DNA of 64,000 nucleotides, from assembly GCA_964637955.1 (NCBI GenBank), contig CAZWXQ010000005.1, positions 18,993 through 82,992 of the forward strand. Direction: 5' to 3'. The stretch is from an uncultured Gammaproteobacteria bacterium (GTDB lineage: Bacteria > Patescibacteriota > Microgenomatia > Levybacterales > UBA12049). Shown here in pieces: positions 8,582 through 50,112 of this stretch (position 1 is its first letter; every line of letters begins with the position of its first letter). The translations under genes were made by a program, and so were the position numbers. The notes beneath the pieces are model-generated. The model made no database searches, was not told the DNA's origin, and saw nothing but the letters and a program-made list of their open reading frames with translations.

Positions 8582-9889
8582 ATGAAAAGCTTGGAAATTA
8601 GAGGCGGTGAAGAAGTAACTGGTTCACAATTTTTACTTACTGGAAATAATCGCAGCAAATTTCTTATAGACTGTGGATTAAGTCAAAAAAATGATAAAAA
8701 TCCCGGAAACACTGACTTAGACCCCACAAATTTAAAAGGAGTTTTTATTACGCATGCTCATATTGATCATGTAGGATTGGTTCAGCAACTTGTTAGATTT
8801 CCAGAAGTGCCTATTTATATGACTCCAGCTACTCTTTCAATTGCTAATATATCATTGAGAAATTCAGAAAAAATTTCACCATCACTTTTTCCTCCAGGAA
8901 GTATCGACAAAATTATGAAAAGAACTACGACTGTTCCATATGGCAGGAGATTTGAAGTAGATGGAGCAAAAGCTATATTTAGAAATGCTGGTCATATTCT
9001 GGGTTCTGCAAGCCTTGAACTTAGTGAAGGAGGAGACATTGTTGCATTTAGTGGAGATATTGGTGATTCACCGTCTCGAACAGTAAAGCCAGCAGAATAT
9101 ATAAAAGAAGCAGATATCATAGTAATGGAAGCTACTTATGGAGGAATTGAAAGACAAGAACATAACTCTACCGAGGACATAAGAGAGGCGATAAGACTTG
9201 CAAGAAAAAATAAAGGAGATCTGCTAGTACCTGTTTTTGCAATCGACAGAGCTCAATCATTCTTAAGTGAGTTACGAAAATTAAGCGAAGAGGGTTTTTT
9301 AAAAACTATGGGTATGGATGTATTCTTTTCCAGCCCAATGGCATCTGATGTTACCCGTATTTACAATGGAAACAGAGATTTATTAAATGAAAAATTAGCT
9401 AAAATTATTCGTCCTTTTGCCTTTCCAGAACTTAGGGAAACATATACGCATGCTGAAGATTTGATGATTGAAAAACAAAAAGATCCAAAAATTATAGTTG
9501 CTGGATCTGGAATGATGGCTGGAGGAAGAATTATCGAGCACGCAAAAAGATGTCTTCCTGATGAAAGAAATGTCATGTTATTTACCGGATTTCAAGCACC
9601 TGGAACAACAGGTGAAAAAATATTACGTGGAGATAAGACAGTTAAGCTGGATGGCGAAGATATTGAGGTTAAAGCTCAAATTCTATTTACATCTCTAAGC
9701 GCCCATGCAGATCAAAATGGTTTACTTTCCTGGCTGGAATATCCTCATCTAGGACAAAGGCCAGTAAGAAATACTATAGTGGTTCACGGGGAAACCGTAA
9801 AGAGACACGCTTTTGCCAATTCAGTAAAGGAGAGATTCGGATTAACGACAACAGTTCCAGATTCTGGAGATATAATTTCATTTAGTTAA
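8582..9889 (+). CDS. metallo-beta-lactamase fold hydrolase of the beta-CASP (RNase J / CPSF-like RNA-metabolising) family
   Basis: HAHIDHVG motif 2, downstream D and H motifs, C-terminal ...SAHADQNGLLSWL... and VVHGE beta-CASP motif C. Confidence 0.65.
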   Translation: MKSLEIRGGEEVTGSQFLLTGNNRSKFLIDCGLSQKNDKNPGNTDLDPTNLKGVFITHAHIDHVGLVQQLVRFPEVPIYMTPATLSIANISLRNSEKISPSLFPPGSIDKIMKRTTTVPYGRRFEVDGAKAIFRNAGHILGSASLELSEGGDIVAFSGDIGDSPSRTVKPAEYIKEADIIVMEATYGGIERQEHNSTEDIREAIRLARKNKGDLLVPVFAIDRAQSFLSELRKLSEEGFLKTMGMDVFFSSPMASDVTRIYNGNRDLLNEKLAKIIRPFAFPELRETYTHAEDLMIEKQKDPKIIVAGSGMMAGGRIIEHAKRCLPDERNVMLFTGFQAPGTTGEKILRGDKTVKLDGEDIEVKAQILFTSLSAHADQNGLLSWLEYPHLGQRPVRNTIVVHGETVKRHAFANSVKERFGLTTTVPDSGDIISFS

Positions 9890-9903: not shown

Positions 9904-9921
9904 TTATTAACAGAGTTCCTA

Positions 9922-10072
9922 CTTAGATTTCGATCTAAGTGTAAGTAACTTTAAATCTCTCCCGCTTAGCGGAATAGTAAAGAGATTAAAGACCCAAGAG
10001 CTTTCGGCTTTGGGATAACTAACTCTAAATCTCTTCCTCTGAAGAGGAATCGATAAGAGATTAGTAAGGAGG
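9922..10072 (+). promoter_or_regulatory. structured 5' leader: hairpin H1 (CUUAGAU-uucg-AUCUAAG), element A' (9949..9987), GC hairpin (9993..10014), element A (10016..10062), then SD AAGGAGG; candidate cis-regulatory RNA / riboswitch-like tandem
   Basis: Element core: UAAC(U)AACU(C/U)UAAAUCUCU - variable hairpin - AUCGAUA/AAUAGUA - AGAGAUU; outer stem AAUCUCU/AGAGAUU; second copy at 46887..46965. Confidence 0.45.
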
Positions 10073-10080
10073 TGAAAAAT

Positions 10081-10497
10081 ATGGCAAAATTAAATCCTTA
10101 TATGCATTTTAAAGATAATGCAAAAGAAGCTATGGAATTTTATAAATCTGTCTTAGGTGGAGAACTCACGATGACTACTTTTAGAGAAGGTATGCATGAT
10201 CAAAGCCCTACAGCTGACAATATAATGCATGCACAGCTAACTGTTGGCCCAGAAATGACGCTTATGGCTTCAGATACGCCTCCTGAAATGCAAGCAAATC
10301 CAGGTGCAAGCGTAACTATTTCTCTTAGCGGAGAGGAAAGTGATGAAGAAAAGCTAAAGGGATATTGGGAAGGTCTTTCAGAAGGTGGAACCGTAAATTA
10401 TCCTTTAGAAAAAGCTCCATGGGGAGATACATTTGGAATGCTTACCGATAAATTCGGAATGGAATGGATGGTAAACATCGCTGGTCCAAAGCAATAA
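10081..10497 (+). CDS. VOC-superfamily protein, PhnB/YjdN-like (glyoxalase/bleomycin-resistance fold)
   Basis: LNPYMHFKDNAKEAMEFYKSVLGGEL ... GMEWMVNI pattern of PhnB-like family; ATG 10081 is 8 nt after AAGGAGG (ORF-track start 10072 is a GTG inside the SD). Confidence 0.6.
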   Translation: MAKLNPYMHFKDNAKEAMEFYKSVLGGELTMTTFREGMHDQSPTADNIMHAQLTVGPEMTLMASDTPPEMQANPGASVTISLSGEESDEEKLKGYWEGLSEGGTVNYPLEKAPWGDTFGMLTDKFGMEWMVNIAGPKQ

Positions 10498-11061: not shown

Positions 11062-13212
11062 ATGAGTCCGGAAATAGCACTAGATATTGATAGATCAACT
11101 GAACTAAATCAAGTTCGTGATCTTGTAAATAAAAAGCTAACGGATGCTCTTGTACCACCTGAAAAACTTCTAAATGGTGATATAAGATTTCAATCAGTTC
11201 TTTACATGAGCTATTGGCACCAAAGACTTCACAATAATACACTAGAACAAAATAGAATTAAGACTCATTTGGAAGAATATTTGGGAACTGCAGTTCCTGA
11301 TTCAACTATAGCTGCAGGAAATTTGTTGTCTAGCCCTGATCTTTCAGAAGCATCCAAGTCGTTTGTTGAAACACTTATGACTCCAACCAAAACTGTGGAT
11401 CTAGTGATTACAAGACAAAGTCCAGATAATGAAAATGAAACGGAAGTATTAAGTCTTGAAAGAGGATATTATCCTTTTGGCTCTGCGCTTCCTGGAGGAA
11501 TAATAAAAGATAGCGATGAAAGTAATGATTTAGATATCCCTCAAAATGTTTTCGCTGCACTAAGGGTTGCTGGAGATAAAGTACTAGGCCTAGGTGATGA
11601 AGCACAGTACTCAATTAGAACAAATGAAAGTGGCAAAACTTATTATGAAGTCTATTCTGAAAACGATTCTGCATCAGTAAGAATTCATCCTGAAGACGAA
11701 GGTGGTTATACATACAGAGAAAATATTAAATCTACTATACGTCCTGCTGACCCAAGACACATAGTGGACACAGTAGCATTTCGATCTGAGCTAATAGGAG
11801 AGCCTAAGACTAATCTTAAGTGGATAAAGAAGTCTGAGATCATGTCAGTAAATGAAACTACTGGCGGATTTGCGTTTGGACACCATAGAGAAATTGTTGC
11901 TCATATCACAAGTCAATCGTCGGTCGAAAAAGAAAGAGAAATGAGCGAACGTGAATTTGTAAGATCAATCATAAATAATCCTCTCGATGCATATAAAGCT
12001 CTTAAAGAAAGATTTGATAAAGATGGTGGAAGCTCCGAAACTTCTTTTCCTGAACTATTTCCTGCTGTAGATAAAATACTTTTAGATTTATTCAAGCATG
12101 AAATCAATCAAATGTGTGAAGATATTCCTCTTCTTGCAGGAATTAGAGACAAAGCAGTAATTTCACTTAGACAAGTCTCTCTTAAAAATAGAACTTTTAT
12201 GCCATATCTACCTACACTTTTAGCTATCACTGAAGGAATTACTTTTTTTGATGTAGTTTCTAGACAAAAAAAAGGATTTTACGATGAAATGCCAAAAGAT
12301 AGAATAGTCGAACATAATCCAGCCGAAACTCAGTATGCTCAGTACCATATGTATAGATACAAATACAGATTTAATGAAATGCTAAGTATGCTTCCAGGAG
12401 AAATTGTAATTCCTACATTCGAACCTCTGTCTGCAACAGATTTGATGAAAGTCAGAGGAGTTCCGGTAAGATTTGTCGGACTTGAGGAAGATTTTGTTTA
12501 TGTTGATGAATTCGAGCAATCTCCCGAAGAATTCTTAATGCATGATGTCAATCATTCCTGGAGAATGATCATGGAAGACAGAAAATATATGGAGGAGAGC
12601 GGAATGAGTAGAGACCAATTTGTTGAAGAGTCAACAAGATTCTCCAAGGTATATTTAGATCATATAAAGATACTAAAGTCAGATACCGAAGAAGAAAGAG
12701 AAATTAAAAAATTAAAGAAGATAATCTTATTCGAAGTAGTACATGAAGATGCACGACCATTTTTGCGAGACGTAATCACTAGATTTATACAAATGCAGGA
12801 AGGTAAACCGGTTCCATTTGAAGTTCCAAGAATCGACAAGGAAACTGGTTACATGGATGTTGTTGATACTTTAGATACTGGAATAAGTACTCTTTCTTAT
12901 GTCAGAAATAAACTTCAACATGGATTTTATGATCATATTGATGCTCAGCTCCCTCAAATAGTTGATCCAAAATACAGAACTGCGGCATGGATTTCATGGG
13001 CAGCGTATGAAATGCTTGTTGAATTAGGAGCTGACCCTGTGCAAGAAGCAGAGTTAGATGCACATGGAAATGTTTCATTTGAGTGGCTCATGAAAAGAAC
13101 ATGTGCAGTCGGACCAGACAATATTCATGATGAAATATCAGAAGATCCTGACTTAGCAGTTTATGGCGATGGAGCAGATAAACTAAACCCTAAAAGATAT
13201 CAGGCAACTTGA
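11062..13212 (+). CDS. large hypothetical protein (716 aa), no recognisable domain
   Basis: Uninterrupted ORF, acidic, no motif recognised. Confidence 0.45.
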   Translation: MSPEIALDIDRSTELNQVRDLVNKKLTDALVPPEKLLNGDIRFQSVLYMSYWHQRLHNNTLEQNRIKTHLEEYLGTAVPDSTIAAGNLLSSPDLSEASKSFVETLMTPTKTVDLVITRQSPDNENETEVLSLERGYYPFGSALPGGIIKDSDESNDLDIPQNVFAALRVAGDKVLGLGDEAQYSIRTNESGKTYYEVYSENDSASVRIHPEDEGGYTYRENIKSTIRPADPRHIVDTVAFRSELIGEPKTNLKWIKKSEIMSVNETTGGFAFGHHREIVAHITSQSSVEKEREMSEREFVRSIINNPLDAYKALKERFDKDGGSSETSFPELFPAVDKILLDLFKHEINQMCEDIPLLAGIRDKAVISLRQVSLKNRTFMPYLPTLLAITEGITFFDVVSRQKKGFYDEMPKDRIVEHNPAETQYAQYHMYRYKYRFNEMLSMLPGEIVIPTFEPLSATDLMKVRGVPVRFVGLEEDFVYVDEFEQSPEEFLMHDVNHSWRMIMEDRKYMEESGMSRDQFVEESTRFSKVYLDHIKILKSDTEEEREIKKLKKIILFEVVHEDARPFLRDVITRFIQMQEGKPVPFEVPRIDKETGYMDVVDTLDTGISTLSYVRNKLQHGFYDHIDAQLPQIVDPKYRTAAWISWAAYEMLVELGADPVQEAELDAHGNVSFEWLMKRTCAVGPDNIHDEISEDPDLAVYGDGADKLNPKRYQAT

Positions 13213-17320: not shown

Positions 17321-20158
17321 ATGAGTGAAATACCAAATCCAGGCATTGCGGAATTTAAGGGAATAGAAAGAATTGCTGAATATGACAGAACAGGCAACAG
17401 CATTTATCTGGATCCTCAAGTTTTTAGCGAAATACGCCCATATAGACCGAGAGTCAGAGGAGTAACATATGAAGTTAATGCCTCAATTAGTGGAGTCTTA
17501 AGAGAAAGTCCCATCGTTGAATGGATTCAAGCAAATCCTGAAGGATTCATGTCGCATGCAGGAAGAGATGTGCATATAAGAAGAGCTCTAGCTACAATTG
17601 ATGATCTGACAGTATCGCTTCAGACAGGAGACCAAGATTCGCAAGATTTATATATGCAATCTCTTGCTGTGGGAGAAAAAATCTCTGAGCTGGATATTCT
17701 TGCAAGACCGTATATACCAAAATCATTATCAACACCTGAACCTGAAGATGAGATGGCTGAATCTCCTATTTCAACAGAAGTTATTTTGCCTAGCATTCAG
17801 ATGAAACGAAACTTTGATTGGAAAAGTGCGCTGATTAAATTATTTAGTAAACTTCCTGAAGGAGCGACTATACCTATCAAACCTATCAAAACTCCGAACA
17901 TTCCACGAATTCCTATTAGAACGCCTCAAGCGCCACAAGAACGTATAGATGATTCCGCCTCGCGAAAAAGAAGAAGAGTGAGGGAGATTGATGATTCCGA
18001 CCTTCCTTCAAGATCCTTTCTTCTCGACGATTTTTACATTGCAGGTAGGGAAAAACTTACTAACCCAAGAGGAAGAGGAAATACTGTTGTTAGAGTAAAA
18101 AATAGCAGAAGACCAATCGCCACAAATGGATTTGTAGTAACTAAAGTTTACAACAGATATGATCCCGAATCAGGACTCATGACGACAGATTCGGAAAAAA
18201 CTCGAATTAGATATTATGACATTGTGCATATAGATTCCACGAGCATCAGCGCCAATATAGGTGTTATTGATCCAATGAAATTTAAAACTATCGGTATACC
18301 TTTTTATGTTACTGACACAGATAATAGGACGTTTGAGCCTGACATAAAAGATAAACTTATAAATTTACAGATTGTAGGAAAAGACGGAGTCATAGTTGAA
18401 AAATATGATCTAGTAGAATATGTAGATGTAGATGGGCTTGGAAATTTAAGCCTATCACTTGAAGACATGCCTGATGAAGTAAGAAGAAAATTAACAGGTC
18501 AAAGTCTTACCATAAATGCTTTTTATAAAACCGGTTTCAATGAACGTACAAAAGTTCATCAGTCAGAACTTCTTGGTCCATTCTCCGAAGATGAAGATTT
18601 CAGATTAAATCTTTACCCCGAAGACATAGCAAATCTTATTAGAAGACTAAGAGAAGTTATAAAAGACGGAAGCGAAAGAGATCCATTTTCAATCCTCACT
18701 CAATATTTATCAGTGTGGGCTCTTGAATACGATATTAAAGATGCAGCAATAAGCAAGGATGATCCTGTGTCTTTTAATCAGACTGAAAGAGTTCTCGAAA
18801 GAAAATTAGCTTCATGTGAAGGTGCAAATATTGCGCTTGGACAATTAATGAGACATCTTATAAAGCCTGGTGAAGGAATTGCATTTGTGACAGGGTATCA
18901 ATTGGGTACAGGCGGCACTGCAGATGATATGAGTGGACATATGATGGTGATGTATGTAGATAAAAAAGGAAACAAAACTTATCTCGATGCTACTCCCTGG
19001 CTTCCCGAACAACGCAAAAGAGTTGAAAATGAAAGAAGAGCCGCTGTGCGAGCAAAAGAAGTCTGGTATAGAAGCACAAAGTATTTGAGAGAAAACCCCA
19101 ATTTTTTGAAAGAATTTAGATCCCTTAAAGAAAGAGCGCGTAATGCAACAACTAGATTATCTGACTCCTGGAACATAGGTGACTTGACCTATGAACTAGA
19201 ACAGGAATTGAGAGATTTTGGAATATATATAGCAAAGTTTAAACAAGAACCAGCTGTTTATTTTGAAGAACCTAAATTGATAGTTCCCCAACCAGATCCT
19301 AATGATCCAAAAGGTGCCGAAAGAACCCGTGAAAGAATTGGTCTTATTCCCGTTATAAGAAAGCATTTTAAAGTACCAGAAAGGATGAAAGCTTTTTGGC
19401 CTGAGAGCTATGATTATATTGATGGCACATTAGAAATCAAAATCCCTAATTATTATCGTGATTTTTATAGAGGATTTTATTACTCCAAGCCAAAAGATCC
19501 TAGCGCTTATTATATGGGAGACTCACCGGCGTCCAGCGAGGCAAGAGCAAGACGTGATTTGCTCTATAATGGCCGTATTCAAAGAAAAACTATTTCCGCA
19601 ATGACAAGAGTACTAGAGGCTTCTACGTATGCTTCTGCTCAAAATATTCAAGCATATGAAACTCTTGCAACTTTAGTCGAAGCGGAATATGAAAGACAAA
19701 AAAGAGCATTAATAGCATGTTTTGAATCAATTCCCGGAGGATTAGGGCAGGATTTGGACAACTTCTGGAACCAGATGCCTTTTATAAGACTTATTGATTC
19801 ACCGTTTCCTCATTTAACAGACTTTTTCACTAGGTCAATAGATTCAAGTTCTCTTGGACATCTTGTAACTTCATCCGGAAACATAGAGGAAGATTTTAAT
19901 TTAAGAATTTCAGAATGGAGAACTGAGATGGATAAGAGAATTGCATCATTTTATGAATTTATTCAATATGCTCCTAGAAAATCAAAAAGTCCAACAGTGG
20001 TAGAAGTTCCAAGTACATTTTTATGGAGGCAAATGAAAGATGTTAGACCAACTGAGCCTGAAGAAAGACCTGATATTGTTGATCCATTGGGTACGTTTGC
20101 GCTTCTGGCAAGACATATGGATGACTATAAATATCCCCATACGAGAATTAATAGATAA
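17321..20158 (+). CDS. large hypothetical protein (945 aa) with central transglutaminase-like cysteine-protease core
   Basis: Cys-His-Asp arrangement CEGANIALGQLMRHL...GIAFVTGY...GHMMVMYVDKKGNKTYLDATPW resembles TGc domain (C..FA.....G......HAW.EVY....W..DPT). Confidence 0.5.
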   Translation: MSEIPNPGIAEFKGIERIAEYDRTGNSIYLDPQVFSEIRPYRPRVRGVTYEVNASISGVLRESPIVEWIQANPEGFMSHAGRDVHIRRALATIDDLTVSLQTGDQDSQDLYMQSLAVGEKISELDILARPYIPKSLSTPEPEDEMAESPISTEVILPSIQMKRNFDWKSALIKLFSKLPEGATIPIKPIKTPNIPRIPIRTPQAPQERIDDSASRKRRRVREIDDSDLPSRSFLLDDFYIAGREKLTNPRGRGNTVVRVKNSRRPIATNGFVVTKVYNRYDPESGLMTTDSEKTRIRYYDIVHIDSTSISANIGVIDPMKFKTIGIPFYVTDTDNRTFEPDIKDKLINLQIVGKDGVIVEKYDLVEYVDVDGLGNLSLSLEDMPDEVRRKLTGQSLTINAFYKTGFNERTKVHQSELLGPFSEDEDFRLNLYPEDIANLIRRLREVIKDGSERDPFSILTQYLSVWALEYDIKDAAISKDDPVSFNQTERVLERKLASCEGANIALGQLMRHLIKPGEGIAFVTGYQLGTGGTADDMSGHMMVMYVDKKGNKTYLDATPWLPEQRKRVENERRAAVRAKEVWYRSTKYLRENPNFLKEFRSLKERARNATTRLSDSWNIGDLTYELEQELRDFGIYIAKFKQEPAVYFEEPKLIVPQPDPNDPKGAERTRERIGLIPVIRKHFKVPERMKAFWPESYDYIDGTLEIKIPNYYRDFYRGFYYSKPKDPSAYYMGDSPASSEARARRDLLYNGRIQRKTISAMTRVLEASTYASAQNIQAYETLATLVEAEYERQKRALIACFESIPGGLGQDLDNFWNQMPFIRLIDSPFPHLTDFFTRSIDSSSLGHLVTSSGNIEEDFNLRISEWRTEMDKRIASFYEFIQYAPRKSKSPTVVEVPSTFLWRQMKDVRPTEPEERPDIVDPLGTFALLARHMDDYKYPHTRINR

Positions 20159-31042: not shown

Positions 31043-32617
31043 ATGAAGAAAGTAAAAATGCTTATACTACAAAACAAACTTCTTATTCTCCTGCTTCTTA
31101 CTTACTCGTTTTTATTTACATTTTTTATTTATTTCTACTATCAAAGGCTGGGGGCTTTTGGGTGCTTCGATGACTGTTTTTATTATATGGGTGGATATTT
31201 TCTTCTCAAAGGAGAAAGAATTTATACTGACTTTTTCTTTAACCACAGTTTTTTAGTGCCAGTTATTAGTTTTCTAATCCAAAAAATCACTCACCCCACA
31301 GAACTTTATACCTTTATCCTTTTTCATAAACTTTTTATATATTTATTTTCATTTTTATTTGGATTAATCCTAATCTTTAGATTCAAAACTCAAGCATTTC
31401 TAACATTAATTTTTTACGAATTAACTAAATTTTTTACATTCGGAGATAGATTCCTCGGAGAAAGCCTAGTAGTTTATCCTGTGCTATATTTACTTGGAAT
31501 TTCCTGGGAAAAAATCCATGCAAAGAAACTTCATAGATTTGACTACTTGTTGTCAGGAATTTTTGTTTACTTTATTATATTCGCAAGAGAACCTTACGTA
31601 CCGTTAGCTTTATTCTTATTTCTAGTAATTCTCTGGGGCAAAAAAGACATTAAGCTTAAAAAATATGCTGTGATAAGCTTCCTTACTCCAGCAATTGTTT
31701 CATTCATTTTAATTTCGCCAAAAGATTTTTTTACTAACGTTTTTACACTTAACAAATCACAAATTGAAACAGAATCATCAAAAAATGGCGGAATCCTAGG
31801 AGTACTCATATATCCCCTGAGAATTTATATTGAAGGCTTTTGGAATCTTTTCAGGCAAATCACCATCTTTTTTATGTCAGCTTTTTTAATTTCAGGTATT
31901 TATTACTCTTTGAAGTTAAGAAGATTGGGGTTTATTATTTTACTTATTGCGCTGAGCCTTGCTGCAGTAAGACCAGAGATTCCTGGCACTATTTTTTACA
32001 AGGCATATCACATGAATATTTGGTATGCAGTCCTATTATTTTCTACATTTTTAGTTATTTTTGAAATATTAAAATTAAAAGCTACTAAATTCAAAATCGT
32101 AATATTATTGCCATTTTTTCTTTTATTTGCATATATATTTACTTCTCCAAACCTGATTATTAATGAAAAAATAAACAAGATTGAAGAATATAATTTTGGC
32201 TATTCTGGATATTATGTTTATGGAAATGCTATTAAAAATTTATCTAGCGACAATGACACGATATTCGTAGAAGAAAAGGATGAATTAATTAATGTACTCT
32301 CAAATCTAAAATCTTCTTATAAATATAATGGATATACCTCTTTTATGCCTTTGATTGATGTGTATAGAGATGAAAGACTTAATATGTTTAAGAATGCTCC
32401 TCCAGATTTTTACTATGACGCCTGCTATCAACTTGATAAAACACACAGAGCTTATACTCCAAACATTGAAAAAAACTTTACAAGAATATATATATTCAAT
32501 AAACCATCCTGTTTACTTATTAACAACAAAAAAATTAACAATATAACTGATGAGAAATGGAAGAAAATTAAAAACTTAGGCTTTCAAAAGCCTGAAAAAA
32601 CTAAACAGCAATATTAA
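31043..32617 (+). CDS. large polytopic membrane protein, possibly GT-C-type glycosyltransferase
   Basis: 524 aa, about 12 TM, extracellular C-terminal domain; family tentative. Confidence 0.35.
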   Translation: MKKVKMLILQNKLLILLLLTYSFLFTFFIYFYYQRLGAFGCFDDCFYYMGGYFLLKGERIYTDFFFNHSFLVPVISFLIQKITHPTELYTFILFHKLFIYLFSFLFGLILIFRFKTQAFLTLIFYELTKFFTFGDRFLGESLVVYPVLYLLGISWEKIHAKKLHRFDYLLSGIFVYFIIFAREPYVPLALFLFLVILWGKKDIKLKKYAVISFLTPAIVSFILISPKDFFTNVFTLNKSQIETESSKNGGILGVLIYPLRIYIEGFWNLFRQITIFFMSAFLISGIYYSLKLRRLGFIILLIALSLAAVRPEIPGTIFYKAYHMNIWYAVLLFSTFLVIFEILKLKATKFKIVILLPFFLLFAYIFTSPNLIINEKINKIEEYNFGYSGYYVYGNAIKNLSSDNDTIFVEEKDELINVLSNLKSSYKYNGYTSFMPLIDVYRDERLNMFKNAPPDFYYDACYQLDKTHRAYTPNIEKNFTRIYIFNKPSCLLINNKKINNITDEKWKKIKNLGFQKPEKTKQQY

Positions 32618-41149: not shown

Positions 41150-41815
41150 ATGAAAATACTCCTCGTTGAAGACGAACATAAAATTGCCAACTCGATTAAA
41201 AATGGTCTTACCCAAGAAAAATATGTGGTTGATGTTTCCTTTGATGGTCAAAGTGGACTTGATTTAGCAATCTCAGAGAGCTATGACGTGATTATATTAG
41301 ATAGAATGCTTCCAGAAATAAGTGGCGATGAAATCATAACTGAAATAAGAAAAAACAAAATACACACACCAATTCTCATGCTTACCGCCAAAGGAACAAT
41401 TGAAGATAAAGTTGATGGCTTAAACATGGGCGCTGATGATTACTTAACCAAACCTTTTGCATTCCTAGAGCTTCTAGCAAGAATTAAGGCCTTAGCCAGA
41501 AGGCCAAAAAACAAAGTTGATCAAACTTTGACTTACGAGAACATAAGCCTAGATACGCAAAGATATGAAGTTAAAAGAGGAAATAATAAAATTGAATTAT
41601 CCAATAAAGAATTTACCCTTTTAGAGTTTTTCATGAGACATCCTGAAAAAGTTTATAGCAAGGACCAAATTATAGCTAGCGTATGGAGCTATGAATCTGA
41701 TATTTTGCCAAATTCTGTTGAAGTATATGTAAAACACTTGAGAGATAAGCTTGGTAAACCTGATGCAATTACCACTGTCAGGGGATTTGGGTATAAACTA
41801 AAAGTAAAGAAATAA
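41150..41815 (+). CDS. OmpR-family response regulator
   Basis: REC domain (MKILLVEDE...ILDRMLPEISGDEI...MLTAKG) + winged-helix (VYSKDQIIASVWSYE...VEVYVKHLRDKLG...TVRGFGYKL). Confidence 0.85.
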   Translation: MKILLVEDEHKIANSIKNGLTQEKYVVDVSFDGQSGLDLAISESYDVIILDRMLPEISGDEIITEIRKNKIHTPILMLTAKGTIEDKVDGLNMGADDYLTKPFAFLELLARIKALARRPKNKVDQTLTYENISLDTQRYEVKRGNNKIELSNKEFTLLEFFMRHPEKVYSKDQIIASVWSYESDILPNSVEVYVKHLRDKLGKPDAITTVRGFGYKLKVKK

Positions 41816-41816
41816 T

Positions 41817-42809
41817 ATGTTTGAAAAAACCAGAATTAAGCTTACTACCTGGTATTTGGTAATTATAATGATTATAAGCCTCCTTTTTAGTGTGGTTATA
41901 TATTCTATAGTCAATTCGGAATTCATTAGATTTGAAAGAATGCAGATTCGTATTCAGCAAGAGATTGAAAATGGAATCCAACCTCACGCTCCAAGGTTTG
42001 TTCAGATCGATCCAGATGCTATTAGTGAAGCAAGGGAACACCTAATCACAAGGCTTGCATTAATTAACTTGGCTATATTTATATTTTCAGGTGCTGCTGG
42101 GTATTTTCTTGCAGGCAGAACTTTGAGGCCCATTAAAAACAGCATGGAGGAACAAAAACGTTTTATTTCAGACTCGTCACACGAGCTTCGAACGCCATTA
42201 ACATCACTTAGAAGTGAAATAGAAGTAGGATTACTTGATAAAAATCTAACGCTTATCAAATCAAAGAAAATTCTAGAAAGTAATCTTGAAGAAGTTATTA
42301 GTCTTCAGACTCTTAGCGATAATCTTCTCGAACTTGCACAAAATGGTAAAACAATCAGCAAGGATGCTGATAATATTTCACTAGAAAATATAATTCAAAA
42401 TGCAATTAAGAAACTTGAGCCAATTGCCAAAGCAAAAGAAATAAAAATAGATAATACGGTAAACAAAACAAAAGTAAAAGGAATTGAAGATCGACTTCAG
42501 GAACTTTTCGTGATTCTTATTGATAATGCTATAAAATATTCTCCTAAAAAATCTATTATAGATATAAAATCAAAACAATCTGGAAATAAAATTGAAATTC
42601 TGGTAATTGATCATGGTAGAGGTATTTCTGAAAAAGATTTACCACATATTTTTGATCGTTTTTATAGAAGCGACGAATCCCGTTCTGAAAGCGGATATGG
42701 ACTCGGACTATCAATTGCAAAAAAAATTGCGCAGTCTCATAATGGGGAAATTGAAGCAACAAGTACACTTGGCAAAGGAACACAATTTAAGGTTATTTTA
42801 CCTGCCTAA
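41817..42809 (+). CDS. sensor histidine kinase
   Basis: 2 TM, H-box SHELRTPLTS, N-box IDNAIKYS, G-boxes DHGRGI and GYGLGLSIAKKIA. Confidence 0.85.
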   Translation: MFEKTRIKLTTWYLVIIMIISLLFSVVIYSIVNSEFIRFERMQIRIQQEIENGIQPHAPRFVQIDPDAISEAREHLITRLALINLAIFIFSGAAGYFLAGRTLRPIKNSMEEQKRFISDSSHELRTPLTSLRSEIEVGLLDKNLTLIKSKKILESNLEEVISLQTLSDNLLELAQNGKTISKDADNISLENIIQNAIKKLEPIAKAKEIKIDNTVNKTKVKGIEDRLQELFVILIDNAIKYSPKKSIIDIKSKQSGNKIEILVIDHGRGISEKDLPHIFDRFYRSDESRSESGYGLGLSIAKKIAQSHNGEIEATSTLGKGTQFKVILPA

Positions 42810-42874
42810 TATTTAGTACAATAAACAGGCTTTTTTAAGCTAACTTTAAGGAACCTGCCCTAAAATGATTCTAA

Positions 42875-44197
42875 ATGAAATTATTCTTAGGACGGATTTC
42901 GTCCAAAATTAAATCTATCTGGCAAAGGTTTTTAAAATTATCCTTATTTAAAAAGGGGATAATTTTGGTAGTTATTTTGGTGATTATCTTTGCAGGATAT
43001 AAGTTTGCAGAAAGTAAAAAAGATGTTAAACCCGTTTACCAAACGACGGCAGCTGAAAAAGGAACTCTAATCTCCTCAATTACATCGTCTGGAACAATCA
43101 CTTCAGCAAATAGTGCTTCAATCTCGACAAATGCGTCAGGAATCGTAAAAGAAATTTATGTAAAAGACGGAGACTATGTAACTGCAGGACAATCAATTGC
43201 AGCTTTGGAATTAGATCAAGTAAGTCAGCAGAAAGCAACAGCAGCTTACGCCTCTTATTTGTCAGCACAAGCAAGCTTAAATAGTGCTCAGGCAAATATT
43301 AATTCGCTCCAATCTGCGCTATTTAAAGCAAATCAAACATTTGTAAATGGCAAAGGAAGCTCAGCGACTCCTGACACTTCGGACCCCACATATATCCAGC
43401 AGCGTGCGGATTGGCTTCAGGCAGAAGCAAACTATAATAACCAACAAACTGTGATCGCAGCAGCTCAGGCCAACCTTAGTAGCGCATCTATTTCTATGAA
43501 TCAAACATCTTCGACCATAACTGCACCAATCGCAGGCTATATCTCAGGTCTTACCTTAACTGCTGGACTCCCAATTAAATCTACGAGTTCTGACTCCACT
43601 TCAAACGCCTCAGGAACAACGGTTGGAGTGGTAAAACTAGCAGATACTAATCCTCAGGCAAGTGTTAGTCTAACTGAAATCGATGTTACGAAGGTAAAAA
43701 TAGGACAAAAAGTCAGCATGACTCTTGATGCATTGTCTGATAAATCATTTACTGGAAAAGTTGTTTCAATTGATACGACTGGCTCTGTCTCATCTGGAGT
43801 AACTTCATATCCGGTGGTAATAGCGTTTGATACATCACTTGATAATATTTATCCAAATATGAGTGTTAATTCAAATATAATAACCGATGTAAAAGATGAT
43901 GTACTCATCATTCCAACAGCTGCAATTCAAACAATAAATGGCGAAAAATTTGTAAGAGTGAAAAAAGGAGACCAGGTAACGCAAGTTAGTGTAACAACCG
44001 GAAACTCTAATGATACCCAAACAGAAATTACATCAGGACTAAAAGAAGGCGATTTGGTAGTAACTGGATCAGCATCCTTACAAGCTCCAGGTGGACAAAC
44101 TGTCTCTCCATTTGGAAATGCTGGATTTGGAGGAGCCACTAGAGCAACTTCTGTAGGAGGAGCTGGTGGAAACGTAATCAGAATCCAACAAAGATAA
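42875..44197 (+). CDS. HlyD/MacA-family periplasmic adaptor
   Basis: N-terminal TM, long Q/A/S-rich coiled coil, C-terminal beta domains; followed by ABC ATPase + FtsX permease. Confidence 0.6.
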   Translation: MKLFLGRISSKIKSIWQRFLKLSLFKKGIILVVILVIIFAGYKFAESKKDVKPVYQTTAAEKGTLISSITSSGTITSANSASISTNASGIVKEIYVKDGDYVTAGQSIAALELDQVSQQKATAAYASYLSAQASLNSAQANINSLQSALFKANQTFVNGKGSSATPDTSDPTYIQQRADWLQAEANYNNQQTVIAAAQANLSSASISMNQTSSTITAPIAGYISGLTLTAGLPIKSTSSDSTSNASGTTVGVVKLADTNPQASVSLTEIDVTKVKIGQKVSMTLDALSDKSFTGKVVSIDTTGSVSSGVTSYPVVIAFDTSLDNIYPNMSVNSNIITDVKDDVLIIPTAAIQTINGEKFVRVKKGDQVTQVSVTTGNSNDTQTEITSGLKEGDLVVTGSASLQAPGGQTVSPFGNAGFGGATRATSVGGAGGNVIRIQQR

Positions 44198-44198
44198 T

Positions 44199-44891
44199 AT
44201 GATAAATATTTCTCATGTCCGCAAAGTATACAAAATGGGAGATGTAGAAACTGTTGCACTCTCTGACATTTCATTTAATATCAAAAAAGGTGAATTTGTA
44301 GCCATAATGGGTCCATCTGGATCTGGAAAATCTACACTCATGCATATTCTAGGAGCTCTCGATACTCCTACCTCGGGGAGCTATATTCTCGACGGAGAAG
44401 AAGTTAGCAAGCTTAAAGATGATGAGCTTGCCAAAATAAGAAATCGAAAAATTGGTTTTATTTTCCAGTCGTTTAATTTGCTTCCCAGAACTTCGGCTCT
44501 AAAAAACGTCATGCTTCCGATGAGATACGGAAATGTAGAAAAAAGTAAAAGGCAAGAAACTGCAGAAAAATATCTGGAAATGGTTGGACTTAAAGATCGG
44601 ATGTCGCATACTTCAAGTCAACTTTCAGGCGGCCAGCAGCAAAGAGTAGCAATCGCCCGGGGTCTTTCCATGAATCCTTCGATAATCCTTGCTGATGAAC
44701 CTACTGGAAATATAGCCTCATCTCAAGCCCAAGAAGTCATGGAGATTTTTCAAAAAATAAACAAAGAAGGTCACACGGTAGTAATGATTACACATGAGCC
44801 AGATATTGCAGATTATGCAAAAAGAATAATAACCATAAAGGATGGCAACATAATTTCAGACAAACTTAATAGCAAAATCTTCAAAGTATGA
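44199..44891 (+). CDS. ABC transporter ATP-binding protein (MacB/LolD-type)
   Basis: [33 protein letters not shown]. Confidence 0.9.
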
Positions 44892-46123
44892 TTAATTCAG
44901 AATTATTTGAAACGTTTATAGAAAGCTTATCTACGCTAACCTTAAATAAACTGCGGACTGGACTAGCTATGCTTGGAATAGTGATTGGAATTGGAAGTGT
45001 TATTGCTCTTTTATCTCTTGGCCAAGCTACACAAAAACAAATAACAAATCAGATTCAATCTCTAGGCGCAAATCTGCTTACGGTCACTCCGGGCTCACAA
45101 ACCGGTGGCGGAGGAGTAAGGGGAGCATTGGGAGGCGGCACTACTTTAACTCTTGAGGATGCAAATGCAATCTCAACTGATCCATCAATAACTACTATTA
45201 ATAACGTTTCGCCTGAGCTTAATTCGCGAGATCAAGTCACCACTGGAAAAAGCAATACAAATGTTCAGATAATTGGAAGCACACAGACCTACCCTGCAGT
45301 TCATAAGCTGGAAATATCAGAAGGATCTTTCATTACTGACTCCCAATCAAATAGTCTATCTCGTGTCGCTGTTGTAGGCCCACAAGTCGTAACAGATCTT
45401 TTTGGTGAGGGAAGTAGCGCAATCGGACAAACCATAAGAATAGCTGGACAATCATTTACAATAATTGGTGTCACTGTTTCAAAAGGTGGCACTGGATTTC
45501 TTAACCAAGACAATATAATTTATGTTCCTCTGAAAACTGCACAAAAACAGCTTTTTGGTCAAGATTACTTAAGCTCTATAGCTCTTGAGGCAAAAAGTCC
45601 TGAATTAATGACCCAGGCCCAAAGCGAAGTAGGATATCTTCTTTTAAATAGACATAAGCTATCTGATCCCGCTGAAGCCGACTTTTCTATTTTTTCTCAA
45701 CAAGATATTCTAAATGCTGTTTCTTCAACAACTGGCACATTTACAGCGCTTCTTTCAGGTATTGCGGCAATTTCTCTACTTGTAGGAGGCATTGGAATTA
45801 TGAATATAATGCTTGTGACTGTAACTGAAAGAACTCGCGAAATAGGCCTTAGAAAAGCTCTGGGAGCCACAAAAAATACTATAGTAACTCAATTTTTATT
45901 CGAAGCTGTGATTCTTACTTTTATAGGCGGAATCATAGGAATGATTGGTGGAATAATTGTGTTTTTTGGGATTTCTAAATTTGCTAATTTTCCATTCATT
46001 ATTTCAGTCCCGTCAATTTTCTTAGCATTACTCGTAAGCGGAGTTATCGGAATTATCTTCGGATGGTATCCTGCAAGAAGAGCCGCAAATTTACAACCAA
46101 TTGAAGCATTAAGATTTGAATAG
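44888..46123 (+). CDS. ABC transporter permease, FtsX-like
   Basis: Paralog of 21939..23132 (shared ...LLVGGIGI.NIMLV.VTERTREIGLRKALGA...). Confidence 0.8.
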   Translation: MINSELFETFIESLSTLTLNKLRTGLAMLGIVIGIGSVIALLSLGQATQKQITNQIQSLGANLLTVTPGSQTGGGGVRGALGGGTTLTLEDANAISTDPSITTINNVSPELNSRDQVTTGKSNTNVQIIGSTQTYPAVHKLEISEGSFITDSQSNSLSRVAVVGPQVVTDLFGEGSSAIGQTIRIAGQSFTIIGVTVSKGGTGFLNQDNIIYVPLKTAQKQLFGQDYLSSIALEAKSPELMTQAQSEVGYLLLNRHKLSDPAEADFSIFSQQDILNAVSSTTGTFTALLSGIAAISLLVGGIGIMNIMLVTVTERTREIGLRKALGATKNTIVTQFLFEAVILTFIGGIIGMIGGIIVFFGISKFANFPFIISVPSIFLALLVSGVIGIIFGWYPARRAANLQPIEALRFE

Positions 46124-46249
46124 AATTAATATAATTAAAAATTGAAATTAAATAAAATTGGATATCCATTTTAGCCTATGGCTAAAAGGATCCAAGATGT
46201 TACTAAGCTTTTTTAAAAAAAGCAAGTAAATCTAGGAGGAGGTGATTAT

Positions 46250-46717
46250 ATGAAAAACCAATTAATAATAGGCGTTGTAGTTGCTTTAGCTCTCGGTGGA
46301 GCTTTAGGGTTTGTGGGCGGTATGCAATATCAAAAATCTCAGAAACCTGACATGATGGCATTCACGACTGGCTCTCAATCAGGACAGGCAATAGTGGGCA
46401 GAAGAGAAGGCGGAAATACTACATTTGCGATGCGTACAGGAGGACCAAATGGAGGTGGAGCCGTTGGGGAAATTATTTCAGCAGATGATAAATCAATCAC
46501 TGTTAAACTTCCTGATGGAAGCAGCAAAATAATTCTTATTAATAGTAAAACTTCAATAAATAAATCTTCGGAAGGAAGTATTGAAGATCTAAAAACAGGT
46601 GAAAGCGTAGCTGCATTTGGAGAAGGTAACTCAGATGGATCAATTACTGCGGTAAGCATTCAATTAAATCCACAAATGAGAATAATGACAAGACCAAGCG
46701 GTGAACCACAACAATAA
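46250..46717 (+). CDS. secreted Gly/Ser-rich hypothetical protein
   Basis: Signal/TM LIIGVVVALALGGALGFVGG, strong SD AGGAGGAGG upstream. Confidence 0.45.
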   Translation: MKNQLIIGVVVALALGGALGFVGGMQYQKSQKPDMMAFTTGSQSGQAIVGRREGGNTTFAMRTGGPNGGGAVGEIISADDKSITVKLPDGSSKIILINSKTSINKSSEGSIEDLKTGESVAAFGEGNSDGSITAVSIQLNPQMRIMTRPSGEPQQ

Positions 46718-46744
46718 GTTAAGGAACATAGAATTAAACAGCTC

Positions 46745-46772
46745 CCTTTTGGGAGCTGTTTTGCTTAGTTAA
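46745..46772 (+). terminator. rho-independent terminator
   Basis: acagctccc-tttt-gggagctgt-tttgc. Confidence 0.6.
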
Positions 46773-46886
46773 GCAGTTTTTAAGTTTTCTTCTCTAATAT
46801 AGACAAATAAGATCTAAAACTAATTTTCAATATATCCCGTAAACGTATTGAAGAGTTAATTGATCTACATTCAAAAGTGAGTCAAT

Positions 46887-46965
46887 ACTTAGATTGAAGA
46901 TCTAAGTATAACTAACTCTAAATCTCTCCATCTAAAGAAGGATCGATAAGAGATTAGTAAGGAGG
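46887..46965 (+). promoter_or_regulatory. second copy of structured leader element (hairpin CUUAGAU-ugaag-AUCUAAG + element B + SD AAGGAGG)
   Basis: Flanks identical to 10016..10072 copy (19 nt 5' and 28 nt 3'); inner hairpin differs with compensatory changes. Confidence 0.45.
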
Positions 46966-46975
46966 TGAATAATTA

Positions 46976-47461
46976 ATGATAAATAAAAAAATAGTTATAC
47001 CATTCGTAGTATTAGGATTCTTAGCTTTTAGTACATTAGCTACGCAAAGTTATGCTTCTATACAAGAAAACACAGATCCTGAATCAGCGATTGTAGAAAA
47101 AATTGCTACTAAATTTGGACTAAATAAGGTCGAAGTTCAAAAAGTTTTTGATGAACAAAAAACACAAATGCATGCCGATATGCAAAAGAAAAACGAAGAA
47201 AGATTAACTCAACTTGTTACTGATGGAAAAATAACAGAAACACAAAAAACTCTAATTCTTAACAAACATAAAGAAATGCAACAAGAAAGAGAAACTAACA
47301 AAGATAGTTTTAAAAATCAAACTCCAGAAGAGAGAAAATCTCAGATGGAATCCAAAAAAGCTGAAATGGAGGCTTGGGCAAAAGATAATGGAATTGATTC
47401 CCAATACTTAATGCCAGAATTTGGTGGCAAAGGTCATGGTGGACCTAAAATGGGGATGTAA
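46976..47461 (+). CDS. secreted K/E/Q-rich hypothetical protein ending GGKGHGGPKMGM
   Basis: Signal peptide VIPFVVLGFLAFSTLATQSYA; ATG 10 nt after AAGGAGG. Confidence 0.5.
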   Translation: MINKKIVIPFVVLGFLAFSTLATQSYASIQENTDPESAIVEKIATKFGLNKVEVQKVFDEQKTQMHADMQKKNEERLTQLVTDGKITETQKTLILNKHKEMQQERETNKDSFKNQTPEERKSQMESKKAEMEAWAKDNGIDSQYLMPEFGGKGHGGPKMGM

Positions 47462-47626: not shown

Positions 47627-48118
47627 ATGGGAAAATCTACATCAATTTTTACTAAATCTCTTTTAAAAAAAATTCTTCTTATCTTTTCAGTAATGATTAT
47701 TTGTTTTATCTTGAGTTATTTTATACTTGGCTTAAAAAATAAAAACGAAAAGACTCCAATCGACACTAATCTAGTAATAATTAATTCTGATTCAACTTGG
47801 AATTTAGTACAAAATTGGCGAAAAGAGAATAATCTAAAAGAATTTGAAAAAAGCGATCGCCTCTGCGTTATCGCAAAAGATTTAGCAAACGATACAAATA
47901 TAAAAAAGATTTCCTTTAGAGATAAGTACTGGAATTATCCCTACAAAATAGGTCAGGTCTCAATTTATAATGCTGATTCCGCAAGTGATGTTTTAGAAGA
48001 GTGGATAAATACCAAAGATAATTTAGAAATATTAAAAAAAGATTGGAAATATTCATGCTTAGTTTGTGAAGGAAATAACTGCGCTCAGATTTTTTCTAAT
48101 TTAGAAAAACCAAATTAG
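47627..48118 (+). CDS. membrane-anchored CAP/SCP-like (YkwD-like) domain protein
   Basis: N-terminal TM; LVQNWRKENNLKEFEKSDRLCVIAKDLAND resembles CAP-domain N-terminal helix; tentative. Confidence 0.3.
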   Translation: MGKSTSIFTKSLLKKILLIFSVMIICFILSYFILGLKNKNEKTPIDTNLVIINSDSTWNLVQNWRKENNLKEFEKSDRLCVIAKDLANDTNIKKISFRDKYWNYPYKIGQVSIYNADSASDVLEEWINTKDNLEILKKDWKYSCLVCEGNNCAQIFSNLEKPN

Positions 48119-48435
48119 TTGGGAAATTTTTCAGCAAATTTAGCAATCTCATTAATTACCGGAAGAATTGCTTTCCCCTTTGGAGTTAAGCCATAAACTA
48201 CAGAAACCTTATCAAGCGTTTCCTCTTTTCTCTCCACAAGACCTTCTTTCTCTAATCTTTTAAGCCTATCTGAAAGAGTAGTGGGATTAAGACCACCAAT
48301 TTCTCTCTGAAGCTCATTAAATCTCATTTCTTTCTCGGATAGATGATTTATAACGCAGAGCATATGAGCCTCAGCTATCATGTTAATAGCATTATCTATA
48401 TCTTGACGGGTAGCATTTAAATTACTTCTAGTCAT
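48115..48435 (-). CDS. HxlR-family winged-helix transcriptional regulator
   Basis: CVINHLSEKEMRFNELQREIGGLNPTTLSDRLKRLEKEGLVERKE....VVYGLTPKG matches HxlR pattern. Confidence 0.7.
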   Translation of the reverse strand: MTRSNLNATRQDIDNAINMIAEAHMLCVINHLSEKEMRFNELQREIGGLNPTTLSDRLKRLEKEGLVERKEETLDKVSVVYGLTPKGKAILPVINEIAKFAEKFPN

Positions 48436-48486
48436 ATATTTGGTATCAATACAGTTTTTTTATATGTATTGACATACTATTCTTTC

Positions 48487-48498
48487 TATAGTACTATA
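48487..48498. promoter_or_regulatory. perfect 12-bp palindrome TATAGTACTATA in divergent region (candidate HxlR operator overlapping a -10-like element)
   Basis: also imperfect inverted repeat GTATCAATAC...GTATTGACAT at 48443..48475; TTGACA at 48469. Confidence 0.35.
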
Positions 48499-48541
48499 AT
48501 TATTGTAGTGCTATAGATTATATAGTTATTATATCAAAAAT

Positions 48542-49174
48542 ATGAACTCAACTCAAATAAAATACACATCTCTTGCGTCAGAAACTTCAATTAAAAAAAC
48601 AATTGAATCACTCAGTAAAAATGGCTTTATCCCAACAGTTGCGGATTCAGAAAAAGAAGCTTTAGCAGAAATCATAAAACTTATCCCTGAAGGATCGTCC
48701 ATTAACAATGGGACTTCAAAAACTCTTCAGGAAATAGGATTTGTAGATCTTCTTAAGGCAGGGGATCATAGCTGGGAAAATCTACATGAAACTATATTGG
48801 AAGAAAAGGATCCCAAAAAACAAGCACATCTTAGAAAACTCTCAACGATTTCAGATTTTTATCTTGGTAGCGCACACGCTTTAACTGAAAATGGGGAAAT
48901 ACTGATTGCGTCAAATACCGGCAGTCAACTTCCGCACTTAGTATTCACATCTCAAAATATAATTCTTGTAGTAGGAGCGCAGAAGATTACCAAAAACTTA
49001 GATGATGCATTCAAAAGACTAAACGAAGTTGTTATTCCGCAAGAAAACGAAAGAATGATGGGTGTTTATGGAGTCGGAACAACTCATGCAAAAACTCTTA
49101 TACTTCATAAAGAAAATCCTATGATGGGAAGAAAAATTTATGTGATTTTAGTAAAAGAAAGTTTAGGATTTTAA
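48542..49174 (+). CDS. LUD-domain (LutC/YkgG-like) protein
   Basis: About 210 aa with ILIASNTGSQLPHLVFTSQNIILVVGAQKI pattern consistent with the LUD family. Confidence 0.45.
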   Translation: MNSTQIKYTSLASETSIKKTIESLSKNGFIPTVADSEKEALAEIIKLIPEGSSINNGTSKTLQEIGFVDLLKAGDHSWENLHETILEEKDPKKQAHLRKLSTISDFYLGSAHALTENGEILIASNTGSQLPHLVFTSQNIILVVGAQKITKNLDDAFKRLNEVVIPQENERMMGVYGVGTTHAKTLILHKENPMMGRKIYVILVKESLGF

Positions 49175-50112
49175 TGAAAGCAGCTCAATATAAAAAATAC
49201 GGCGATACAAGTGCTATAGAAGTTATTGACAATGCTAAGGATCCTGAATATTCTGATTCTCAAATACTGATTGAAGTTTTTTCTTCAAGTATAAATCCTG
49301 TTGAATCCGCAATAAGAAATGGCTACATGCAGCAAATGCTTCCGTTAAATTTCCCAGCAACACTTGGGGGAGATTTTTCGGGTGTAGTAAAAGAGGTGGG
49401 TAAAAATGTAACTAAATTTAAAATTGGAGATGAAATTTTCGGAATTGCTAATCCATTTAAAGGAGGATCCGGTTCAGTTGCTCAATTTGTTACCGCTAAT
49501 GAAATAAATTCTGCTATAAAGCCTTCTAACATTGACCATGAAAAAGCTTCGAGCTTACCCCTGGTCGGAACAAGTGCAATCCAAGCCTTAGAAGAACACA
49601 TTCAGATTGAATCAGGCCAGAAGATATTAATCCATGGAGGTGCTGGAGGCATAGGATCAATAGCTATTCAAGTCGCTAAATCACATGGAGCGTATGTTGC
49701 AACGACCACAAACAATGAATCAATTGAATTTATAAAAAACTTAGGAGCAAATGAAGCAATTGATTATAAAACCCAAGATTTTACAAAAATACTAAAAGAA
49801 TTTGATGCAGTTTTTGATACAGTGGGCGGAGAAATAACAAATAAATCAATTTATATACTTAAAAAAGGTGGTATTTTAGTTACAATGGCTGGCCAAATAG
49901 ATGATAATTTAGCAAAAGAACATGATATAAAAGCTATAACTCAAATGACAAACGGAGACACAAACACATTAAATAGGTTAAAAGACTTGATTGAAACAGA
50001 AAAAATTAAGCCTGTAATTGATTCTGTATTTTCACTAGAACAAGCTAAAGAAGCTTATGAGTTACTTGAAGAAGGTCATACAAAAGGTAAAATTGTTATA
50101 AGGATTAAGTAA
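49174..50112 (+). CDS. zinc-type alcohol dehydrogenase / NADPH:quinone oxidoreductase (MDR superfamily)
   Basis: N-terminal GroES-like domain, Rossmann GGAGGIGSIAIQVAK, C-terminal KGKIVI. Confidence 0.8.
   Translation: MKAAQYKKYGDTSAIEVIDNAKDPEYSDSQILIEVFSSSINPVESAIRNGYMQQMLPLNFPATLGGDFSGVVKEVGKNVTKFKIGDEIFGIANPFKGGSGSVAQFVTANEINSAIKPSNIDHEKASSLPLVGTSAIQALEEHIQIESGQKILIHGGAGGIGSIAIQVAKSHGAYVATTTNNESIEFIKNLGANEAIDYKTQDFTKILKEFDAVFDTVGGEITNKSIYILKKGGILVTMAGQIDDNLAKEHDIKAITQMTNGDTNTLNRLKDLIETEKIKPVIDSVFSLEQAKEAYELLEEGHTKGKIVIRIK

Follow-up and report, generated by a model that had tools for sequence, protein, structure and literature searches.

The window, as we call the whole analysed stretch of 64,000 nucleotides, contains an envelope-type gene cluster at 41150-47461. 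Its products are, in gene order, an OmpR-type response regulator, a HisKA kinase, an HlyD-type MFP, an ABC ATPase, a MacB/FtsX permease and two secreted proteins, a DUF5666 protein and a K/E-rich one. The gene for the latter (46976-47461, plus strand, ATG at 46976) codes for 161 aa with a signal peptide, a helical body and a Gly/His/Met-rich tail ending in GGKGHGGPKMGM. Its AlphaFold model is all-helical (pLDDT 76), and no significant Pfam, NCBIfam, PDB sequence or fold match was found; the best Foldseek hit had an E value of 1.2, and the OmpH-like similarity stayed below the threshold. The protein belongs to a family (homologues P0001-P0105) that is widespread in CPR and shares the motifs VQKIATKFGLNK-EVQKVFDE, LTQLVTDGKITEAQK and WAKENGID. 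All named homologues stem from CPR/Patescibacteria, namely from Levybacteria, Saccharibacteria, Uhrbacteria and the 'Patescibacteria group'. The K/E gene is part of the cluster in the window and is located just behind the kinase gene in relatives, which suggests that its product is an accessory or a target of the two-component system, comparable to CpxP or Spy.

At 48115-50112 a gene for an HxlR-type regulator is divergent from genes for a LUD-domain protein and a zinc-type alcohol dehydrogenase, and the HxlR-LUD pair is kept beside the K/E gene in the relatives L023, L025 and L033. This set represents an electrophile- or aldehyde-type module that neighbours the leader-controlled gene, with no obvious link to it. 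Elsewhere in the window, three open reading frames had no Pfam match (11062-13212, 716 aa; 17321-20158, 945 aa; 31043-32617, 524 aa), the last of which resembles a polytopic membrane protein.

The leader of the K/E gene (46885-46978, plus strand) begins with an upstream hairpin, P0, at 46885-46909. It is formed by AUACUUAGAUU-GAA-GAUCUAAGUAU with up to 11 bp (z = -4.1) and includes the core stem CUUAGAU-UGAAG-AUCUAAG (46888-46894 / 46900-46906) named in the original prediction. P0 is followed by the conserved unit, referred to as unit C (46908-46965), and by the Shine-Dalgarno sequence (SD) AAGGAGGUGA at 46959-46968, whose GGAGG (46961-46965) begins 2 nt past the basal stem P1. The order of hairpin, conserved unit and AAGGAGG proposed for this second copy is hence present where it had been placed. 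A terminator-like hairpin 3' of the DUF5666 gene (46736-46761) lies about 125 nt 5' of P0.

The element also precedes a gene at 10081-10497 on the plus strand, where it is arranged in tandem. The product of this gene had been assigned a VOC fold, and matches to PF06983 and PF00903 as well as to YjdN-like proteins confirmed it as VOC/PhnB/YjdN-like. Its leader, likewise on the plus strand, starts with a P0 (ACUUAGAU-UUCG-AUCUAAGU, 9921-9940) that has the same stem as the P0 of unit C and another loop. Then follow unit A (9941-9997), a spacer hairpin CCCAAGAGC-UUUC-GGCUUUGGG (9993-10014) serving as P0 of the next unit, and unit B (10015-10072). In unit B, P1 spans 10018-10026 / 10056-10065, an internal UC/UC loop lies at 10032-33 / 10050-51 and the GGAGG of the SD at 10068-10072. 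Upstream, the gene for a Beta-CASP/RMMBL metallo-beta-lactamase ribonuclease (RNase J/CPSF-like, 8582-9889) ends 30 nt before the P0 of the VOC leader, and a weak terminator-like hairpin (9855-9869) is located within its 3' end.

An alignment of unit C with 10012-10076 showed that both flanks common to the two copies, ATAACTAACTCTAAATCTCT on the 5' side and ATCGATAAGAGATTAGTAAGGAGGTGAA on the 3' side, are identical. In agreement with the original prediction, unit C (46908-46965) and unit B (10015-10072) differ in the inner hairpin only. A portion of the shared 3' flank, AGGAGGUGA, is the standard SD of the lineage and also occurs at genes without the element. The pattern AAATCTCT-N12-30-AAGAGATTA gave 3 matches in the window versus 0 in 100 shuffles.

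Fold and covariation of the leader element

Covariation identifies the element as a genuine structured RNA, as opposed to a chance repeat. It forms a rod of about 50 nt which consists, from 5' to 3', of P1 with 9 bp and usually one bulged A, an AA/A 2x1 loop, P1b with 3 bp, a 2x2 UC/UC loop and the hairpin P2 with 4-6 bp. In unit C, an AUA junction (46908-46910) connects P0 to P1 and overlaps the base of P0; in the alignment this junction reads RUA in 7/7 units. The P1 5' strand ACUAACUCU (46911-46919), which was supported by the covariance model alignments, pair counts and the minimum free energy (MFE) fold, pairs with AGAG-A-UUAGU at 46949-46958, A46953 being the bulge. The 5' side of the A-rich internal loop (A, then A/G; 46920-46921) is opposite a single A at 46948, and the two loop positions A13 and A42 are invariant. 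P1b pairs AUC (46922-46924) with GAU (46945-46947) and covaries among the units as AUC/GAU, AAC/GUU and AGU/ACU. The adjoining 2x2 loop is made up of U18 C19 (46925-46926), found in 7/7 units, and U37 C38 (46943-46944), which is UC in 6/7 units and UA in unit A. The variable hairpin P2 (UCC-A-UC UAAA GA-A-GGA, 46927-46942) differs in each of the seven units, with compensatory changes.

The stems thus exist in several sequence versions, three each for P1 and P1b and seven for P2. P1 is ACUAACUCU / AGAG-A-UUAGU in the window, AGAAAAACU / AGUUUUUCU in L023 unit 2 and in L033, and AGAAACUCU / GGAG-A-UUUCU in L034. The terminal loops of P2 are just as diverse (UGAA, UAAA, UUA, AUU(C), CUACA, UUAAU and UCU). 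Unpaired and fixed in all seven units are the U-A of the RUA junction, A13, U18-C19, U37 and A42, and C38 is kept in six.

In the covariance model alignment 89.7% of the cells pair, compared with 66.7% in shuffled and at most 47% in slid controls, and changes on both sides were found in 11 of 17 pairs. An independent MAFFT/RNAalifold alignment returned the same core, with 93.5% of the cells paired and compensatory changes in 9 of 12 pairs. These values are based on seven units, which come from four metagenomic genomes of close relatives, and on a model built from the same family, so that relatedness could inflate part of the statistics.

The true helix can be told from the units of L023, L033 and L034. 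The most conspicuous inverted repeat, AAUCUCU / AGAGAUU, which had been put forward as the outer helix, was rejected: 81.6% of its cells can pair, no better than in shuffles (70/500), and only one double change was observed. The conserved helix is ACUAACUCU / AGAG-A-UUAGU, and the AAUCUCU / AGAGAUU register is an alternative conformer at best. The inner hairpin had to be corrected as well, since the proposed CCAUCU/AAGGA does not reflect the actual pairing of UCC-A-UC with GA-A-GGA around a UAAA loop. At units A, B and C and in L034, P0 is strong and ends 0-3 nt 5' of the AUA junction. It is weak or absent at both L023 units and is therefore a frequent part of the element, not an obligatory or defining one. 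Its CUUAGAU...AUCUAAG form is confined to the two leaders of the window and the orthologue in L023 (2308-2323).

Unit A deviates at otherwise invariant positions. In this unit C38 is replaced by A and C11 by U, P1b has lost two pairs and P1 its outer ones, and a long uninterrupted stem, CUUUAAAUCUCU/AGAGAUUAAAG, forms as an alternative. It reached 59-64 bits in the covariance model search, compared with 79-81 bits for unit B, and may be a decaying duplicate.

Distribution and turnover of the leaders

The covariance model was built from four units and rebuilt with seven, and relatives were reached via the downstream proteins. The search revealed exactly seven distinct units with 59-81 bits, which are distributed over four Patescibacteria genomes related to each other; all other matches on either strand of about 171 kb scored at most 19 bits, with filters off or at default. 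In addition to units A and B at the VOC gene and unit C at the K/E gene, the model found L023 unit 1 (1623-1680) before the DUF5666 orthologue, L023 unit 2 (2327-2381) before a K/E orthologue with 83% identity, and one unit each before the K/E homologues of L033 (5-59, 67% identity) and L034 (3921-3975, 64% identity). All seven units are 5' leader elements in sense orientation. Six of them are proximal to the SD, with 1-6 A-rich nucleotides followed by AGGAGG or AGGGGG, and unit A comes first in the tandem.

The original prediction had named copies inside coding regions or in random orientation as a sign of a MITE-like repeat. No coding-region or antisense copy was detected in the approximately 171 kb, nor did the covariance model find copies at 3' ends. 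Two units lie inside operon-like spacers without an annotated terminator, one between the histidine kinase and the K/E gene (L034) and one between MacB and DUF5666 (L023). Matches to AACTYTAAATCTCT-N-AAGAGATT in contigs of public genomes (5 loci) and metagenomes (16) were dismissed as chance, being mostly coding-looking and lacking the inner hairpin. Viral contigs gave 0 matches to the patterns of the window-type and the K/E-type unit.

The element is ancestral upstream of the K/E gene, which is tied to the two-component system, and was copied to the VOC gene in the lineage of the window. Among K/E orthologues, conservation is higher in the unit than in the protein: the units of L023 and L033 are nearly identical, while the proteins share 83% and 67% identity, respectively, with that of the window. 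In L034 the unit is located in the spacer from the kinase to the K/E gene. The K/E homologues of L025, L026, L035 and L036, which start 34-60 nt behind a kinase gene, have no unit. Similarly, the leader is absent at four loci with VOC orthologues of 78-83% identity.

The window and L023 share 88-100% identity near the K/E locus, but only 50% in the segment of unit C and 33% in the DUF5666 leader. Such low values in an approximately 90% identical background indicate that leaders were replaced as blocks; the element is evolutionarily labile. Accordingly, the alignment of window and L023 showed that the whole leader between stop codon and SD was exchanged, without duplicated flanks. Moreover, L023 carries a window-type unit before DUF5666; the K/E unit of the window is also of the window type, and another type is common to L023 and L033. 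The identity of units B and C is therefore due to recent copying, or replacement of a cassette, within the lineage and not to co-regulation over long periods.

Two further differences between the leaders of relatives were noted. The DUF5666 leader of the window (46124-46249) and its counterpart in L023 (1606-1687) differ in that the motif unit is found only in L023; the window has an unrelated double hairpin, in which GGAUAUCC...GGAUCC encloses UUUUAGCC/GGCUAAAA and is followed by UUACUAAGCUUUUUU/AAAAAAAGCAAGUAA. In L034 (3975-4004), the site at SD spacing that holds AUG-AUA-AAU-AAA in the window is occupied by AUA-AAU-AAG-AAA, and the annotated start of the K/E gene is an internal AUG five codons downstream which has no SD. 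Translation in L034 begins at a non-canonical AUA, or else the N-terminus was miscalled.

Possible functions of the element

The stems were turned over during evolution and the loop bases remained fixed, which argues that the loops are recognised by some factor. We tentatively favour, at slightly less than even confidence, a lineage-restricted leader hairpin that would be recognised by a protein and would control translation and/or the processing and stability of the mRNA. We infer that the unit is transcribed, that its near-invariant loops are the recognition site of a trans-acting factor and that translation or mRNA stability responds to it. A protein, either a translational repressor or an endoribonuclease, appears likelier as this factor than a metabolite. 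Since the rod abuts the SD, a translational operator is favoured: occupancy of the rod, whose base touches the SD, could govern the access of ribosomes. Alternatively, cleavage within the AUA junction could yield a downstream mRNA that is protected by the rod at its 5' end and has its SD exposed. In each case the gene would be uncoupled from the upstream genes and its expression level would be set, and genes bearing the module would share this control.

Whether shared control amounts to a regulon is a separate matter. The original prediction had placed functionally unrelated genes under one element, and this holds true for the VOC and K/E-rich proteins in the window and for the DUF5666 protein in L023. 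The downstream genes have no metabolic or transport theme in common. Of the small regulon that was thought to respond to one signal, the sense-strand leader element at unrelated genes stands; the further step to a regulon with a shared signal stays hypothetical and is weakened by the recent copying behind the identity of units B and C and by VOC orthologues that have no such leader. As the DUF5666 leader of the window differs and the VOC orthologues lack the leader, specific control seems to be dispensable.

Conserved junction nucleotides and covarying stems, the tandem arrangement at the VOC leader and the different genes behind the same element would also suit a metabolite or ion riboswitch, which we regard as doubtful. 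Here the UC/UC and A-rich loops would form the pocket and the ligand would stabilise P1, resulting in an ON switch; a stable P1 would hold a pyrimidine tract (CUCU of the 5' strand in window-type units, UUUCU of the 3' strand in K/E-type units) off the SD, and the tandem units of the VOC leader would sharpen the response. A rod-like riboswitch with the ribosome-binding site at the P1 3' arm has a precedent in THF-II (PMC9881143). The folding energies bear on this reading from both sides. In five of six leaders the MFE fold is the rod with an unpaired SD, and in L023 unit 1 it is the SD-pairing alternative. Forced pairing of the SD costs only 0 to +3 kcal/mol in window-type leaders (B, C and L023 unit 1), with CUCU of the P1 5' strand as the competitor, and +1.6 kcal/mol in L034, with UUUCU of the P1 3' strand, but +5 to +7 kcal/mol in L023 unit 2 and L033, where UUUCU of the P1 3' strand competes again. 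Moreover, an anti-SD common to all units was rejected, as the competing strand differs between unit types, and the alternative register has no covariation support. According to these folding models, competition between P1 and an anti-SD is possible and would not be a conserved platform. The His/Met/Gly-rich tail of the K/E protein is compatible with a metal theme, yet the downstream genes (secreted K/E-rich protein, DUF5666, VOC) form no coherent set, VOC orthologues and kinase-adjacent K/E homologues do without the element and its known distribution is very narrow. Besides, leaders were swapped between approximately 90% identical genomes, which we would regard as unusual for riboswitches. A narrower version, namely the first riboswitch specific to Patescibacteria, in which the tandem U.C/C.U and the A-rich loop of a minimal rod-shaped aptamer would bind a small ligand or metal ion and turn on a secreted His/Met-tailed envelope-stress protein and detoxification-type genes, is in our view unlikely.

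The turnover of the leaders could also point to a selfish or neutral palindromic repeat of the REP or MITE kind, or to a cassette that spreads by recombination and has no regulatory role. The identical flanks of B and C at unrelated genes, the exchange of whole leaders in an approximately 90% identical background, the presence and absence among close relatives and the resemblance of unit A to a decaying copy would all be expected from it; the shared AGGAGGUGA SD would perhaps provide microhomology, and the compensatory changes would arise from intrastrand templated repair of the palindrome. Such repair does not explain why the loops are fixed while the stems change, which argues for selection on unpaired bases. 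The sense orientation of 7/7 units, with none in coding, 3'-end or antisense position in about 171 kb, the lack of a target-site duplication at the replacement borders between window and L023 and the retention of the unit in K/E orthologues whose proteins are as little as 64% identical further make this explanation decidedly unlikely. Finally, the element could act as DNA, with (T)ATAAS as a -10 box or with the inverted repeats as an operator for a dimeric regulator such as the adjacent OmpR-type response regulator or the HxlR-type regulator. TATAAC or TATAAG is found in three units, TTGAAT-18 nt-TATAAG in L023 unit 1, and the K/E gene is located within a two-component-system cluster. However, no unit has the final T of a -10 box, the last base in TAnnnT being C or G throughout, and the first T is absent in four; a consensus promoter scan gave 0 sites. 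A transcription start past this box would delete the P1 5' strand, yet P1 covaries. P2 and P1b vary and stay complementary, which a protein operator would not need, and the spacing of the P0 half-sites is 4 in one case and 5 nt in another. A signal at the DNA level is consequently highly improbable. The probability that remains is assigned to none of these four readings. Termination of transcription has no counterpart in the leaders, since no U tract follows P1 and the scan for intrinsic terminators gave only the hairpin of the upstream gene at 46736-46761.

Relation to known regulatory RNAs

Post-transcriptional regulation in Patescibacteria is almost unexplored. In a recent review, riboswitches figure only as an engineered tool for inducible expression, and natural ones are not described (PMC11665869). 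A compact module that is reused before different genes and exchanged among close relatives offers a testable entry point. An RNA-binding regulator, a processing pathway or a ligand sensor might be discovered through it, and it could serve as a native part for expression control. If it turned out to be a mere stabilising hairpin, the module would still show that leaders evolve as cassettes in reduced genomes.

Rfam 15 gave two tRNAs only when the whole window was searched at the gathering threshold. At E <= 10, a search of both window leaders and the leaders of L023 and L034 left the units at the level of noise, the best match being mir-711 with 16-18 bits versus a threshold of 68. Being structured, with covarying stems and conserved junction bases, the element has the generic features of a riboswitch aptamer. 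Among the known classes, THF-II (folE motif) is a rod of approximately 50-60 nt in the 5' UTR with two coaxial helices and an internal loop, where two pyrimidines on opposite strands (J12/J21) hold the ligand (PMC9881143). Both are small rods with conserved residues mainly in the internal loop and near the ribosome-binding site. However, THF-II has one strongly asymmetric bulge (J12 of about 7 nt, J21 of about 1 nt) and the ribosome-binding site inside the P1 3' arm, whereas the element described here has 2x1 and 2x2 loops, an SD outside P1 and downstream genes unrelated to folate. Membership in THF-II was therefore rejected on account of the different loop architecture, the missing Rfam match and the lack of folate genes downstream.

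In an intergenic spacer of the two-component operon saePQRS of S. aureus, a 24-bp duplex guides RNase Y to cut 6 nt upstream, which stabilises the downstream fragment and changes the expression ratios (PMC5449607). The element resembles this system in its rod of about 20-22 stacked positions, in the 0-3 nt past AUA and in its association with a two-component-system cluster. P1 (9), P1b (3), the 2x2 loop and P2 (4-6) add up to about 20 positions, so that the likeness to an RNase guide concerns geometry only. In contrast to the element, which abuts the SD, no invariant internal loops and no distribution over several genes have been reported for sae. Furthermore, the window showed no gene for RNase Y. 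The RNase III sites of phage T7 (R0.3, R1.1 and others) are likewise multiple hairpins of related sequence within a single genome, with a conserved internal loop between a lower and an upper stem, and they are intergenic and located before genes. They belong to another type of organism and have another loop architecture.

Guanidine-II (mini-ykkC) and pan RNAs are small hairpins, often in tandem, that lie immediately 5' of the SD, and those of mini-ykkC carry ACGR tetraloops. The element shares with them the single or tandem hairpin units directly 5' of the SD. Membership in guanidine-II was nevertheless rejected, as the terminal loops vary and contain no ACGR, the conserved bases are internal and no Rfam match was obtained at E <= 10. 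With REP, Correia and ERIC sequences the element has in common that it is a short imperfect palindrome, presumably transcribed and present in several copies, which is gained and lost among close relatives. However, such repeats lie in either orientation, mainly at 3' ends or in intergenic regions, and number tens to hundreds of copies, whereas the three copies found here in 64 kb are all sense 5' leaders, two of them at the SD, and have conserved unpaired bases. Taken together, the leader module is a new RNA family that is absent from Rfam, and it represents a kind of element that is already known.
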